20,498 nucleotides of DNA from a virus (lineage: Duplodnaviria > Heunggongvirae > Uroviricota > Caudoviricetes), in IMG/VR virus record IMGVR_UViG_2802429224_000006, positions 1 to 20,498 of that record; one strand, 5' to 3'. The position numbers were made by a program. Positions 1 to 6,000 of this stretch are shown in pieces (position 1 is the stretch's first letter; the number at the start of each line of letters is the position of its first letter).

Positions 1-3000
1 CGACCAGCGACCAGCGACCAGCGACCAGCGACCAGCGACCAGCGACCAGCGACCAGCGACCAGCGACCAGCGACCAGCGACCAGCGACCAGCGACCAGCG
101 ACCAGCGACCAGCGACCAGTAAATCCAGAAAGACGGTAAAATCGGTTGAGCCGCAAATTTCCGATCTCGCGAACTCATGGCTTAAATCTTACGGGCTTGA
201 TTACAGGCTGGAGCAGGCACCACTTAACCGCGAGATAGATAACGCCCTGGACGCCTATTTTTCGAAAAATGGCGGTGCAGGTGGTAACCGTCCCGATGTA
301 AAACTCCTTATTCAGGACAAATACGGCAGGCAGTACCCCGTTCTCATCGAATACAAAGGCTATAAGGACAGGCTTATCCGGCTTGGCAGTAACGGTATCA
401 TCGAGAATAAAGATTCCAGAAAAGAATGGAACTTTAAAAACATTAATGGATATGCGGTTAATGGTGCAGTCCATTATGCCAACGCACTTCTCCAGTTTAC
501 CAACTACTCAGATATTATTGCGATCGGTATGACAGGCTGGTGCGATGATGATACAGGAGAGCTTCATCATGAAATTGGCGTGTGGTATGTATCAAAGAAT
601 AATTTTGGGGCTGGGCAGAAGGTTGGTGAATACACTGACTTATCGTTCCTTGCGGATAAAAATGTTGACGGATTTATCAACAAGATAAAGCTGCTTAATC
701 TGCCGCCTGAGGAGCTGGAAAAAATTAAGGCCAGCAAAGAGGAAGAGATAGACACTCGACTTTCTCGCCTGAACAACGATATTTATCAGGATGAAAAGGG
801 GCTTGGTGAAAGTGATCGTGTTTACCTTGTTGTGGCTACCGTGATTGCGACGTTGGGTATTCCTGACAAACTGGCACCCCTGGATAAAAAAGAACTTACT
901 TCATCAACGGAAGACGATTGGCGTGATGGCGATATTATTTTCAGGAAAATAAGAAACTTTTTACGACTAAAAGCTCTTCCTGAAACAAAAAGAGAAATGA
1001 TTTTGCGCACGCTGCAAAATACGCTGTTGACTGAAAACATTAACAAACCAGTCAATGGTGAAAGCCAGTTAAAGCGCGTGTTTGTTAAGGTTGTCGATGA
1101 CCTTGGGGAATACTACAAAATCGGGTTGACCACCGACTTTACGGGTAAGCTGTTTAATGAGATGTATCGCTGGCTTGGGTTTACGCAGGACAAGCTTAAT
1201 GATGTCGTCCTGACTCCACCCTACGTAGCCACATTACTGGCAAAACTTGCGCGGGTGAATAAAGATTCCTATGTATGGGATTTTGCTACCGGTTCAGCCG
1301 GATTGCTTGTGGCTGCAATGAACGAAATGCTCATTGACGCCAGAGAGAATATTCACTCACCCAACGAACTGCAACTCAAGGAGGCGAAAATCAAGGCAGA
1401 GCAGCTTCTTGGTATTGAGGTGTTACCCAGTATTTACATGCTAGCAATTCTGAACATGATCCTGATGGGGGATGGGAGCTCAAATATCCTCAATAAAGAC
1501 TCGCTGGCCGATTTTGACGGCAGATATGGCTTTGGGAGAACAGGGGAAAAATTCCCGGCCGACGCATTTATTCTCAATCCTCCGTATTCTGCTAAAGGCA
1601 ACGGCATGGTTTTCGTGCAGAAAGCTCTTTCGATGATGGATAAAGGCTATGCCGCAGTGATTATCCAGAGTTCAGCCGGGACAGGAAAAGCGACGGAGTA
1701 CAACAAAAAAATACTCAAAGAAAATACCTTACTGGCAAGCATCAAAATGCCTGCGGATCTATTTATTGGTAAATCAAGCGTTCAGACCTACATTTACGTT
1801 TTTCAGGTGAAAATTAAGCATAGCGCGAAACAGGCGGTTAAGTTCATCGATTTTTCCAATGATGGCTACATTCGCTCTAATCGCAAAAAGGCAAGAAGTA
1901 ACCTTGTTAACGCCGATCGTGCAAAAGAACGCTACCAGGAAGTGGTGGATCTGGTTCATTTCGGGGGAGGTTGCCTCAATATCCTTACGGAAGATGAATA
2001 TTTTGAAGGAACCATCGATCCTGATAGCGGTGAGGACTGGAATCAGACGAAGCCTGTGGATACCAGGCCAACACTGGATGATTTCAAAAAAACGGTGAGT
2101 GACTACCTTGCGTGGGAGGTGTCGCAATTACTGAAAAAACAAGGTGAAAACAATTCTGCGGGAAAGTAAACTCCCCGCTCAGCGATAAATTAAAAAGTGT
2201 TGAGTGGGGAGAATTCAGGATTGGCGATTTGTTCGATGTGAGCACTGGTTCGCTTATTTCCTCAGGGAGATTAAAACCTGGCAAAATTAAACGCGTTTCA
2301 GCAAAGAGCGAACAAAATGGCATCATCGGAGAATTTGATACGGAGTTTATGGATGATGCAAGGCATTATGAAAATTTCATAAGCGTTAATTTCTTTGGAG
2401 ATGCTTTTTATCATCCTTATTGTGCCAGCGTCGAAATGAAGGTACATGTTCTTACATTAAAATCAAATAAGTCTGGCTTTAACACAAAGTGCGGATTATA
2501 TATTACCAGTATGATTAATAAAACTTTAAAAGGACGCTTTAATTATGGTCAACAGTTATCTAGTTCCAAACTTAGGGATGGAGAATATTTCATAAAATTA
2601 CCGGTAAAAAATAATGCAATTGACTGGGATTTTATGGATAATTATATAGAAGAGCTGGAAGCGATCCATATAGAAGAGCTGGAAGCGTATTTAATGGTTA
2701 GCGGACTCGCGGACTCGCGGACTCGCGGACTCGCGGACTCGCGGACTCGCGGACTCGCGGACTCGCGGACTCGCGGACTGATAAGCTATGAGCTTACGCC
2801 GCAGGAATCAAATATTTTAGATAAAATTAAAAATGGCGGCGTTTCATGGGAAATGCTGCCATTTGATTATTTTTTTAGCCGCATAAAGCAAGGGAAACGG
2901 TTGAAAAAACAAGATCATATTAAAGGTGATATTCCTTTTGTTATGGCAGGTATAACGAATAATGGCGTTGCAAACTTTATATCAAATCCTCATGTGATTT

Positions 3001-6000
3001 TCCCGGAAAATTCAATTACAGTTGATATATTCGGAAATGTTTTTTATCGCGGGCATAAATTTGGCGCGGGGGATGATACAGGTGTGTACTGGCGAGATAA
3101 AGAGCAGTTTTCAAAAGAAAACATGCTTTTCCTTGCAACATCAATGGCATGTGCCATCAAGGGTAAATATTGCTACGGGAGGAAGTTAAGAAGTTCTCAA
3201 AGCAAAGAAATAAAAATGGCAGTTATCAACAAAAACGGTTATCCGGACTATACCGCAATGAAAGATTTGATTTCTGCTATCCAGAAACTCGTCATCAAAG
3301 ATGTCGTCCAGTACGCTGATAAAAAACTGGCAGCGTACAGGCATGTTACATCTGAAAAAATCGATTAGCAGAAACATCATACTTCCTTGCCAGGCAGGGG
3401 AGAGCGGTCAGATTATCGCGTTACGATGCATGAAAAGCAGTTTACAATCGTAAAAATCTGGATACTCTGTTAAGAGTGGTCACTTCGCCACACAGCTTAA
3501 ACCCGTCGCCAGGCGGGTTTTTTTGTGTCCGAAAAGTGGTGCAGTACGTTAAATGCGCATGTTGTTTTTTTTAAAATTCAGAAATAACAAAAACACATAC
3601 GTATATTTACGAATATTGACATGGTTTTCTATTGAAAAGAGAGCCGGTATTATTAATATCAGTCTCCGGTTCCGAAGGGGATGTAAAGCTCGGTCATTTT
3701 TATTTCTCTTGAGGAACCAATGCCGACTTAGCTCAGTAGGCAGAGCAACTGACTTGTAATCAGTAGGTCACCAGTTCGATTCCGGTAGTCGGCACCATAT
3801 GCGGGTATCGTATAATGGCTATTACCTCAGCCTTCCAAGCTGATGATGCGGGTTCGATTCCCGCTACCCGCTCCAGAGCGAGATAGGTAGTTTTTTGGCA
3901 CTGACACATTTTATGTGGGGCGTTTTTCCTGACTCCTTACCTCGCCCTGTACTGTAATGAGTGATATCGGTTGCAGTACCAGTGCTGTTTTTTACGCCAC
4001 CGGAATGGTGCATTATTGGTAGAGATTTGCAATGTCTCTGGCAGGGGCCGGTGATGCATCATCCCGATGTTGTAAACATCACCCAAAATAACGTTGAGAT
4101 TAATCTCGTACTAAGCAAAACCTGGAAATACATCCTTAACCGCCGCACCAGGCGGTTTTTTTTATTCTGAATTCCCAAAAAAAAGAAAACACGGACACTG
4201 ATAATGTCCGTGCGGCAATGCCATGTAAGTCAGCGATGAATATGGCGCAAAAAAAGCGCGGCTGTCGGATTAACGCCGCGGGACAAAGTCCGTGAAGAAG
4301 AATAAGCATCGGTCTCCTCCGGGAGACGAGTTGATATTACTAAGCTTTAAAAATGGTTTAAATCCCCGGATTAACCTTAATTTTCGATAAGTCTTATTTC
4401 ATTTCTTTGCGCCACATCTGGCGCGCATCAAATAACGCCACGCAAAGGGCATCTGCGGACGCCGGTGCTTTTGACGGGGTGTTTTTTTACGGGCCGCTGG
4501 TGGCCCTTTTTTATTTACAGGAGAAAAAAGTATGTCTGAACCCTTATCCGGTTCCGGCACGGCTGCGGCGCTGGGTGGCGCGACGGTATTCGGGTTGTTT
4601 ACCGGGACGGATTTCGGGATTGTGTTTGGCGCGTTCGCCGGGGCGTTATTTGTGGCAACGATGCCGCAGGCGCTTTCAGCCTGGCGTGTGGTGGCACATT
4701 TTCTGGTGTCGTTTATTGTCGGCGTGCTGGGAGCGCGTGTGCTGTCAGCCTGGATTGCATCAAAAACAGGGTATGACGGTACATCAGCAGATGCGCTTTG
4801 TGCGGTGCTGGTCTCGGTGGTGTCGGTGAAGATTCTCTCGTTCATCCACCAGCAGGATATCGCATCACTGGTGTCCGGTGTGTTCTCCCGCCTGCGGGGT
4901 GGAGGAGGCGGCAATGTTAAGTAACCTTCCCGGATTACTGAATGTGGTGTTATGCACGGTTATCGTGCTGACGCTCTTTTTTTATCGTCGCCGTGATTCC
5001 AGACATAAACCGCTGATGTCATGGCTGGCCTGGCTGCTGATGCTGCTGTATGCCTTTGCGCCCCTCAGCTATCTGTGTGGTCGCCCGTTAGCAACGGGCT
5101 GGCTGGAAGTGTTTTTTAACCTGCTGTTCTGCGTGCTGGTGATACGCGCACGCGGGAACGTCACAAAAATCTTTCCATTGTTGAGGTGAATATGTCGGGT
5201 AAATTCAGATTTAGTCGTCGCAGCGAAAAGAATCTGGAGGGCGTTAAACCACAGCTGGTTGCTGTCGTTCGCCGTGCGCTGGAGCTGACGGAGGTTGATT
5301 TCGGTATTACGGAAGGGCTGCGCACGAAAGAACGCCAGAAACAGCTGGTCGCGGAAGGGAAAAGCCAGACCATGAACAGCCGCCACCTGACCGGTGATGC
5401 GGTGGATGTTGTTGCCTGGGTTGGCAGCCAGGTGTCATGGGACTGGCCTCTGTACGAGAAAATCGCGCAGGCATTTAAGCAGGCTGCCGCAGAGCTGGGA
5501 ACTGCCATCGAATGGGGCGGGGACTGGAAAACACTGAAAGACGGGCCTCACTTTCAGTTGAAACGCTGATAACCAGGTGTGTTATGAGCAGAAAACACTG
5601 GACACACAGAATGCCGCGAACGGCGGCGAAATGGGCACTGGTAGCGATACTGGTGCCTTTTTTTCTGGTGGGATGCGTCAGTCTGGATAAGGCGCGCCAG
5701 CTTTTCGATACAGCTTCTCAGGTCTGTGAAATTGTCGACGATGTTCGGCTGTGTATGCAGAACTGATCGCCTGTAATAGCAGAATATTTTGCTGAAAAAT
5801 GAAGGGTGCGCCAGCGTCCGGAAAGCATGAAATTCTGCTGCGTGTGCCAATTTTATCTTATTCATTCTAAATCTTGCCGAATCAAGATGAACTTTGATCA
5901 ACTGCCTGGCGGCAAGGGGCATTAAAACAGGAGAAAATTATGTGGAAACCTACAGGTGACAAGTTAATCACCGCGTTGATTGACGGCAAGCCACAATACT

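Follow-up and report, generated by a model that had tools for sequence, protein, structure and literature searches.

What is the restriction-modification (R-M) locus that opens this viral contig, does it belong to a phage or to the bacterial chromosome, and how are its two genes, RM (the restriction-modification polypeptide) and S (the specificity subunit), expressed? The DNA analyzed (hereafter the window; positions 1–20,498 of the IMG/VR virus record IMGVR_UViG_2802429224_000006) constitutes the entire short-read contig PTST01000049.1 of assembly GCA_002965365.1, and its features lie on the plus strand unless stated otherwise. It contains the R-M locus (1–3368), a tRNA-Thr/tRNA-Gly gene pair (3722–3875) and, just downstream, a phage lysis cassette (4532–5766), all of them present as the original prediction had described. 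That prediction had also noted that the R-M genes are richer in AT than the phage structural genes, which was borne out (the GC content of RM is 0.44 and that of S 0.39, whereas the lysis genes have 0.55 and the packaging and structural genes 0.51–0.55), and that Q and integrase genes are not visible; neither was found within the window. Two origins had been proposed: either the R-M system is prophage cargo, or a prophage that had lost its early region lies next to a host tRNA locus. Comparison with related sequences supports the first, in which bases 1 to approximately 3546 form a cargo cassette (moron), exchanged horizontally, within a lambdoid Escherichia prophage that integrates at ssrA. 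The full explanation, in which this cassette encodes a BcgI-like enzyme whose expression would be set by three sequence devices, has an estimated probability of about three in four, and is built on direct observations of anatomy, synteny, conservation, covariation and repeat-length polymorphism. The devices themselves (two simple-sequence repeats and a frameshift signal), as well as the fusion of nuclease and methyltransferase described below, had been missed in the earlier reading.

The RM reading frame (1–2169) is open from base 1, ends with a TAA stop codon (2167–2169) and is truncated at the 5' end because the contig starts within a 7-nucleotide tandem repeat. Its product, recognized by Pfam and PADLOC, is a fusion of a BcgI-alpha-like PD-(D/E)xK endonuclease and a gamma-class N6-adenine methyltransferase. 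Thus, of the methyltransferase/S pair originally proposed, the HsdS-like S protein was confirmed, whereas the partner is a fused endonuclease-methyltransferase and not a plain methyltransferase. The protein matched the PADLOC profile REase_MTase_IIG (PDLC03616; 773 bits, 7.5e-233, profile positions 4–717 of 721) and Pfam N6_Mtase (6.5e-21), while the nuclease domain remained below the Pfam threshold (VRR_NUC, 21 bits). Three sets of motifs are encoded: PD...EYK (292–360), the S-adenosylmethionine-binding FATGSAG (1282–1302) and NPPY (1576–1587). NCBIfam returned only sub-threshold HsdM and MAD2 matches for RM, and no solved structure matched it by sequence. The S reading frame (2160–3368) lies in the −1 frame relative to RM; its translation contains two Pfam Methylase_S domains, both halves are covered by PADLOC Specificity_II (Type II specificity-subunit) profiles, and it is arranged as a first target recognition domain (TRD1), a central helix, repeats, TRD2 and a conserved C-terminus. 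A gene for an HsdR-type translocase subunit is absent, as RM is flanked by Q and a Hok/Gef-family gene upstream (in relatives) and by S, then the tRNA and lysis genes, downstream. Because a nuclease-methyltransferase fusion is paired with an HsdS-like S protein with two TRDs, the system is classed, from its sequence, as a BcgI-like Type IIB/IIG R-M system; annotators of the source records also named the relatives BcgI alpha and beta chains. Such systems are defined by RM and S subunits in a 2RM:1S stoichiometry (PMC3874165). They are further characterized by AdoMet-dependent cleavage to either side of a bipartite recognition site. For the system described here, enzymatic activity, such a cleavage pattern and the stoichiometry are predictions from sequence likeness. 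RM is under strong purifying selection (dN/dS of 0.057 in comparison with an 89%-identical E. coli allele). Its homologues sharing 60–73% identity were found in Clostridia, Bacteroidales, Treponema, Campylobacter, Helicobacter pylori and others; this cross-phylum set comes from a scan of one genome per species, among whose returns there were no Enterobacteriaceae. An internal start at ATG 529, which would give a methylase-only product, was also considered and dismissed, as no supporting signal was found.

The origin of the locus was approached by comparison with related (pro)phages. Positions 3547 to 20,414 of the window align colinearly with a prophage integrated at ssrA in E. coli A36 (blastn, 94.1% identity over 16.9 kb), and this backbone comprises the tRNA genes, lysis genes, a K88-like moron, the Nu1/gpA terminase and lambda-like head and baseplate genes. 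The A36 prophage (NZ_CP028739, 1501837–1549773; L072 in our set) is complete, from a tyrosine integrase to ssrA. Its genes follow in the order DnaB, hypothetical protein, Q, GIY-YIG nuclease, hypothetical protein, DNA methyltransferase, tRNA-Thr and tRNA-Gly, and after these two holins, an M15 endolysin, the K88-like gene, Nu1 and the terminase large subunit (gpA). Within this element, approximately 16 kb separate the tRNA pair from the integrase end and approximately 26 kb lie between it and the end at ssrA. Because it is placed inside a complete prophage, the pair is an internal part of the phage backbone, as is everything downstream of it. In A36 the slot between Q and the tRNA genes is occupied by a different R-M system (the GIY-YIG nuclease and methyltransferase; L072 16292–19131), and homology with the window begins exactly where that cargo stops, which places the cargo/backbone junction at approximately 3547. 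Upstream of this point the whole R-M cassette has a GC content of 0.43, compared with approximately 0.55 for the backbone, and it ends with an intrinsic terminator (3499–3520); several intrinsic terminators found in the same terminator scan separate the R-M genes from the lysis genes.

The upstream side, which the window itself lacks, is preserved in relatives. An IMG/VR contig of the same phage lineage (L010; replication genes 90–97% identical to those of A36) shares 97.5% identity with the window across the 3' end of S and the tRNA genes, and carries, in this order, DnaB, Q, a strong promoter resembling PR' (TTGAAA-16-TAGAAT), a Hok/Gef-family gene, the repeat tract, RM, S and tRNA-Thr/Gly. 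The six chromosomal loci of E. coli that were examined all share the order NinG-NinH-Q-Hok-RM-S with the deposited phage genome PhiR12_3; a NanS-like esterase gene and lysis genes come next, in some of them with tRNA-Ile/Arg/Arg between S and the esterase gene. A position between Q/PR' and the lysis genes thus holds for the R-M system in all relatives examined. In phage vB_EcoS-683R6 the same tRNA-Thr/Gly pair comes immediately after Q and is itself followed by lysis genes. This R-M system is present in 30 of 5426 complete E. coli genomes, and the proteins clustering with S at ≥90% identity originate from E. coli and other Escherichia species.

The second proposed origin, a prophage remnant without its early region that abuts a chromosomal tRNA locus and an R-M island, so that the R-M genes would not be phage-borne, could draw on the absence of Q, repressor and integrase genes from the window and on the 97–98% identity of both tRNAs to chromosomal enterobacterial tRNAs. 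However, the same pair resides in complete prophages, including that of A36, and in phage genomes, directly after Q; the window is colinear from 3547 with an intact ssrA-integrated prophage; and the R-M genes are flanked by Q/Hok and lysis genes in every relative examined. An att direct repeat, which the original prediction had named as the sign that the R-M genes lie outside the prophage, was looked for, and no att-like repeat was detected that involves the tRNA region. The upstream sequence is missing because the assembly broke inside the repeat tract, and the upstream extension that the original prediction had proposed is therefore impossible within this assembly. The remnant origin is therefore highly improbable, and R-M genes carried as prophage cargo are the preferred reading, although for this window the Q gene, promoter and start codon are deduced from relatives, as the region upstream of the repeat is not included in it.

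R-M genes as prophage cargo in the slot between Q and the lysis genes are ordinary and unsurprising. The late-region morons of lambdoid phages, such as stx in the Shiga toxin-converting (Stx) phages and LT-IIb in phage SerU-LTIIb, occupy the same slot, with Q/PR' before it and the lysis genes after it, and they too have phage tRNA genes alongside, a deviant GC content and their own terminator. They differ in their cargo, which is a toxin there and a defence/epigenetic system here. The stx slot also trades defence systems, as near-identical phages hold two different R-M systems there, and the Q-to-tRNA slot seems to be a hotspot for R-M exchange. A 115-bp segment (window 3452–3566) recurs at the internal boundary of the A36 cassette (L072 17543–17656, 83% identity). 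Furthermore, in every relative carrying this R-M system, a Hok/Gef-family toxin gene (L010 3922–4077; L073 1510–1665 and equivalents) and a terminator hairpin lie between the PR'-like promoter and the R-M genes, and this gene appears to travel with Q and the R-M genes as one module.

How is S translated? The S frame is open only from position 2145, and no ATG or GTG codon occurs ahead of the conserved N-terminal motif of S (SVEWGEFRIGDLF). The sole TTG codon (2229) encodes a leucine inside this motif and is replaced by TTA or CTA in many relatives, while the alignment to the PADLOC Specificity_II profile starts already at the second residue after the RM stop codon. At the end of RM there is an in-phase −1 slippery heptamer, G_GGA_AAG (2160–2166, X_XXY_YYZ phase), which comprises the last two RM codons and abuts TAA. 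It is followed, 4 nucleotides downstream, by a 14-bp RNA hairpin (2171–2211), recognized by folding and covariation, that is a candidate frameshift stimulator. A 76-nucleotide stretch containing the hairpin folds with −29.7 kcal/mol (z = −5.8), and the 57 nucleotides of hairpin and heptamer alone with −24.0 kcal/mol (z = −7.2). No known RNA family was found at the RM/S junction in Rfam, whose only matches in the window are the two tRNAs.

A set of 44 homologous loci from many phyla, with 39 distinct junctions, was compared. At every junction with a separate S gene, S lies in the −1 frame, which is open only from a few codons upstream, and, with two exceptions, the loci that have S as a separate gene carry a slippery heptamer in phase, whose end lies 0–3 nucleotides before the RM stop codon (variants G_GGA_AAA/G, A_AAA_AAG, C_CCA_AAG and A_AAA_AAA). 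Candidate S start codons are scattered and not conserved across these junctions. The heptamers G_GGA_AAG, A_AAA_AAG and C_CCA_AAG, which are exactly the three found at the proteobacterial junctions, are listed as highly shift-prone in E. coli by Atkins et al. (PMC5009743). In an ungapped alignment of 34 homologue junctions, in which a 12-bp stem was scored, 98% of the cells were paired, compared with 35–47% in slid-partner controls. Five stem pairs showed double compensatory changes, and the observed values were reached by none of 500 shuffles. In the pair of columns 38–60, for instance (CG in 14, UA in 14 and UG in 6 sequences), an exchange between Lys and Glu goes together with a synonymous change of a Leu codon. 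The base preceding GGA is kept as G across five different preceding codons (CTG, TTG, TCG, GCG and CCG), the differences found between the RM stop codon and the TTG leave the S-frame amino acid unchanged or replace it conservatively, and a second S allele of Escherichia prophages, with an unrelated N-terminus, has its own in-phase A_AAA_AAG and hairpin.

Further evidence comes from relatives in which both parts form one open reading frame (ORF). Three of these (L030, L036 and L016; 849–864 aa, with N6_Mtase and Methylase_S domains) align colinearly across the junction, with a linker as long as that of the predicted trans-frame product, and several database proteins also span the junction, one of them reading ...HGKIEASLNEKL... 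The most economical reading of these data is a conserved programmed −1 frameshift that would yield RM and an RM-S fusion. As S has no start codon of its own and is preceded by a frameshift cassette, it may be made only as this fusion, with a predicted mass of approximately 122 kDa and a predicted junction peptide ...NNSAGKVNSPLSDK, also written ...ENNSAGKVNSPLSDK. The elements resemble those of the −1 frameshifts of dnaX, the IS3-family transposases and lambda G/GT, which, according to the same review (PMC5009743), use the same heptamers, a 3' hairpin a few nucleotides downstream and a 0-frame stop codon right after the site, and give two products in a fixed ratio. The difference is the class of gene, as no R-M enzyme is mentioned in either the available part of this 2016 review (PMC5009743) or the 2013 GeneTack survey text.

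Several observations weigh against a frameshift, which is a prediction from the comparison of sequences. H. pylori and one metagenome-assembled genome (L042) have a GTG or ATG codon overlapping the RM stop codon, and some members of the family have ordinary Met-initiated S genes. Independent initiation of S thus exists in the family and might be used here too, with TTG 2229 or a non-canonical codon as the start. The alternative built on these observations holds that S is a separate protein, as in BcgI and Sau42I, made from TTG 2229, a non-canonical codon or by termination-reinitiation, and that the heptamer and hairpin reflect coding constraint (...LGK in RM; ...L N ... V K/E W G E at the N-terminus of S), translational coupling or mRNA stability. 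BcgI-type enzymes are indeed known as two separate subunits (PMC3874165), S of Sau42I starts at an ordinary Shine-Dalgarno (SD) sequence and ATG, and the automatic PGAP annotation calls TTG starts in the relatives. Yet TTG 2229 falls within the conserved WGEFRIGDLF motif, many relatives have TTA or CTA in its place, and the sequence upstream of this codon evolves as S-frame coding sequence. Further points against this alternative are the G retained before GGA through five different codons, the radical K/E change that covaries with a synonymous Leu codon change and so preserves the base pair of columns 38–60, and the separate A_AAA_AAG and hairpin of the second, unrelated S N-terminus. A locus without programmed frameshifting, in both parts of this alternative taken together, is consequently unlikely, and the frameshift is preferred.

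Two simple-sequence repeats may act on the expression of the same genes. Both have units that are not a multiple of three and both lie inside an ORF, with the upstream start codon of the first known from relatives only. The first, (CGACCAG)×17 in the 5' coding region of RM (1–119; TRF: period 7, 17.0 copies, 100% matches), is cut by the contig start, and its count in the window is a lower bound of at least 17 copies. In relatives an SD sequence and ATG CTG CCA immediately precede a (GACCAGC)n tract, which reads into the RM frame, and a second ATG occurs 8 nucleotides upstream in a different frame. Uninterrupted tracts of 3, 9, 16, 19, 34, 56, 58, 67, 83 and 99 copies were found in relatives, together with two interrupted tracts of approximately 93 and 102 units. 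The three-copy alleles are exactly in frame. Differences occur also between closely connected isolates: within one isolation series the counts are approximately 93 (G1/2), 83 (G6/7) and 99 (G8), and three O111:H8 isolates have 56, 83 and 58 copies. The length of the tract would set the RM frame in or out of register and, because two ATG codons in two frames precede it, could act as an on/weak/off switch. These properties fit a repeat-based phase switch, and actual switching would be expected from them.

Exactly 83 copies were found in three unrelated records, i.e. PhiR12_3 (L001 19546–20119), E. coli G6/7 and the O111:H8 strain 7-32 9A (L074 and L077 are listed); this recurrent length may reflect either an allele that is common or an artefact of assembly or polishing shared by the records. 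The repeats also seem to affect automatic annotation. In the E. coli chromosome records L073–L078, PGAP (i) calls the reverse strand of the tract a 'YXWGXW repeat-containing protein' or hypothetical protein, (ii) starts RM at a TTG codon downstream of the tract ('HsdM family methyltransferase') and (iii) flags the N-terminal part of S as a pseudogene 'missing N-terminus'. These three calls look like annotation artefacts of the repeats and of the missing S start codon.

The second repeat, (GCGGACTC)×9.9 (2701–2779; TRF), is an octanucleotide repeat located between TRD1 and TRD2 of S. It is in frame in the window (9.9 copies, giving a full-length S) and in L011 (6 copies), and out of frame in L015 (7 copies) and L003 (26 copies), where S is truncated after TRD1. 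The octamer would thus toggle between full-length S and half-S, and would therefore probably change specificity. In Type I systems a half-S can dimerise and alter specificity, as in NgoAV. TRDs are, in addition, shuffled between S alleles. Just upstream, the central region of S contains two copies of a 24-nucleotide in-frame repeat (2644–2687; direct repeat family D7) encoding helix turns of the IEELEA type, which is present in two to four copies in relatives; a change in the number of central repeats alters spacer length, as in EcoR124I/II. Logan contigs, 100% identical to the window but with 2.9 octamers, were not accepted as a sign of switching, given that tandem repeats collapse in k-mer assemblies.

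Whether these repeats serve as a switch depends on how their length variation is read. Long tracts are hard to assemble, repeat counts from short-read and k-mer assemblies are unreliable, and tracts of up to approximately 100 repeats are far longer than those of classical contingency loci, all of which weighs against an adaptive role. The repeats could instead be neutral expanding minisatellites or assembly artefacts in a usually-off, decaying cargo gene: an ATG with a strong SD sequence is in frame in 5 of 17 relatives, near the one-third expected by chance, tracts of 56–100 units are unusually long, their lengths are misreported by short-read and k-mer assemblies, and the R-M system is rare in E. 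coli (the 30 genomes mentioned above). Against this, the RM ORF is intact in every locus examined and its dN/dS value indicates strong purifying selection. Moreover, the 7- and 8-nucleotide units sit exactly at points that gate translation (after the ATG and between the TRDs), the short three-copy alleles are exactly in frame, and copy numbers differ among long-read complete genomes of related strains. Neutral repeats are therefore considered rather improbable, more so than the lack of a frameshift, and the phase switch is retained as the preferred reading.

Phase-variable R-M systems and phasevarions (Type III mod; Type I hsdM/hsdS, e.g. NgoAV; Type IIG cj0031) likewise have non-triplet repeats within an ORF, and share the polymorphism of repeat length between strains and the truncation of S by a repeat-driven frameshift (PMC7383803, PMC4889913). 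In contrast to them, the system described here has an Escherichia host, is phage-borne and has two independent tracts, whose heptamer and octamer units reach approximately 100 copies. If the reading is correct, it would be a rare repeat-driven phase-variable methyltransferase/restriction system in Escherichia, carried by phages related to the Stx phages. The host range of phages, the acquisition of foreign DNA and the epigenetic heterogeneity of pathogenic E. coli lineages (O111:H8, for example) might then be affected. To our knowledge, Escherichia is poor in repeat-based contingency loci.

Taken together, these elements suggest how the cassette might be expressed. In relatives a PR'-like promoter follows Q, and no separate sigma-70 promoter was detected in them in front of RM, which is a further point against the full explanation and because of which expression in the lysogen is a prediction only. 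As with stx, transcription of the cassette would depend mostly on RNA polymerase modified by Q, and lysogens would show some read-through. The heptanucleotide repeat would gate the whole system, because S depends on the translation of RM. A −1 frameshift at the last two RM codons would offer a route for translating the S frame despite its lack of a start codon and would yield RM and RM-S in a fixed ratio, a 1:1 mix of which would reproduce the 2RM:1S composition of BcgI. The enzyme would then restrict incoming DNA and methylate both resident and progeny DNA. Its main benefit may be defence of the lysogen, protection of the progeny phage or epigenetic heterogeneity, with a role in the lysogenic or the lytic state alike.

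Among characterized enzymes, BcgI, BaeI, CspCI and NgoAVIII also combine a fused nuclease-gamma-methyltransferase RM with an HsdS-like S with two TRDs, and have no HsdR motor. The present system differs from these in that S, which has no initiation codon, follows a slippery heptamer and hairpin in the −1 frame and is therefore probably made as an RM-S fusion, in that two frame-shifting repeats would gate RM and S, and in its location in a phage late region. A BcgI-like RM and S pair on a temperate, lysogenic-converting phage is already known, namely Sau42I of the S. aureus phage phi-42 (PMC6532042 and PMC2853133). Its RM shares only approximately 27% identity with the RM described here, its S gene has a normal SD sequence and ATG, overlaps the 3' end of RM by 20 nucleotides and lacks a slippery heptamer, and no repeats were reported for it or seen in the 2980-bp record. 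Dempsey et al. (2005) are said to have described Sau42I as a BcgI-like R-M system. In the single-chain Type IIB/IIG enzymes (AloI, CjeI, PpiI and TstI; HaeIV) the order R-M-TRD(s) is that of the predicted trans-frame product. These enzymes are, however, genetic fusions that exist in the fused form only, whereas the frameshift would yield RM and RM-S from one mRNA. The 1RM:2TRD composition of the single-chain Type IIB enzymes has been called 'a mystery' (PMC3874165).

R-M genes on temperate phages and repeat-based phase-variable Type I, III and IIG systems are already known. A broader claim is that a widespread BcgI-like clade (Firmicutes, Bacteroidota, Spirochaetes, Campylobacterota including H. 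pylori, and Escherichia phages) translates S only via a conserved −1 frameshift at the RM stop codon, and that the Escherichia module is also gated by two hypermutable repeats; to this joint claim we assign only slightly better than even odds. No description of a programmed frameshift in any R-M system, nor of a heptamer/octamer-gated BcgI-like system of Escherichia prophages, was found in the literature searched, the coverage of which was incomplete, so that an earlier description, for instance in REBASE notes, may exist; the frameshift appears to have been undescribed until now. If the claim holds, this would be the first programmed frameshift described in an R-M system, and restriction enzymes would join the short list of bacterial genes with programmed −1 frameshifting. 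It would provide a simple mechanism for setting the stoichiometry of 2RM:1S enzymes and would explain both the relation of single-chain to two-subunit Type IIB enzymes and the fact that pipelines call these S genes pseudogenes or give them arbitrary TTG starts. In Escherichia prophages the result would be a stochastic switch with three layers, carried by phages, that acts on restriction and methylation specificity.

The backbone genes following the cassette begin with tRNA-Thr(UGU) (3722–3797; ARAGORN; Rfam, 71.4 bits) and tRNA-Gly(UCC) (3801–3875; ARAGORN; Rfam, 65.6 bits). The latter reads GGA, the P-site codon of the slippery heptamer, and the former reads ACA; GGA and ACA occur 17.6 and 12.0 times per 1000 codons in RM and S, and 10.3 and 6.7 times in the structural genes. 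A specific link between tRNA-Gly(UCC) and the slippery GGA codon is doubtful, because phages lacking this R-M system carry the same tRNA pair. The following 650 nucleotides up to the first holin gene (3876–4531) contain no convincing gene (an ORF at 3961–4170 has no family match) and several terminator-like hairpins (4138–4157 and 4491–4506 on the plus strand, 4213–4189 on the minus strand), and are 84–88% conserved in phages SerU-LTIIb and vB_EcoS-683R6.

The lysis cassette, defined by Pfam matches and the gene calls of the source record, consists of genes for a holin (Phage_holin_8, 4532–4924), a second holin (Phage_holin_3_7, 4878/4914–5189), an M15 endolysin (Peptidase_M15_4, 5186/5192–5569) and a small lipoprotein (5584–5766). 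The last of these, known from the gene calls, has the lipobox LVGC and no family match and is a candidate outer-membrane spanin, for which no inner-membrane partner was recognized. Between the lysis genes and Nu1, in the slot equivalent to that occupied by the LT-IIb enterotoxin genes in phage SerU-LTIIb, there is an orphan gene for a K88/FaeG-type fimbrial subunit (6472–7275, or 6493–7275 in the source record; Pfam Fimbrial_K88, 2e-46). It encodes a signal peptide, has a GC content of 0.46 and is bordered by terminators on either side (6059–6083, 6348–6367 and 7303–7330), with no usher or chaperone gene nearby. Exact-sequence look-ups of the K88-like protein and of the 652-aa terminase ORF gave no match, probably owing to start codons unlike those of the called genes; the look-up of the S protein led to the source contig. 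Further downstream, the S49 protease/scaffold gene (11821–13437) contains a 138-bp tandem repeat (12804–13312; 3.7 copies, 78% matches), which gives rise to a repeated Ala/Gln-rich segment. The phage as a whole has a mosaic morphotype, in which packaging and head genes of the lambda/phi21 type are joined by P2-like genes for a contractile tail and baseplate, and it integrates at ssrA; the P2-like tail part was defined in the A36 prophage (L072 30496–45900), and the corresponding region of the window (approximately 15000–20,414) was assigned by colinearity.

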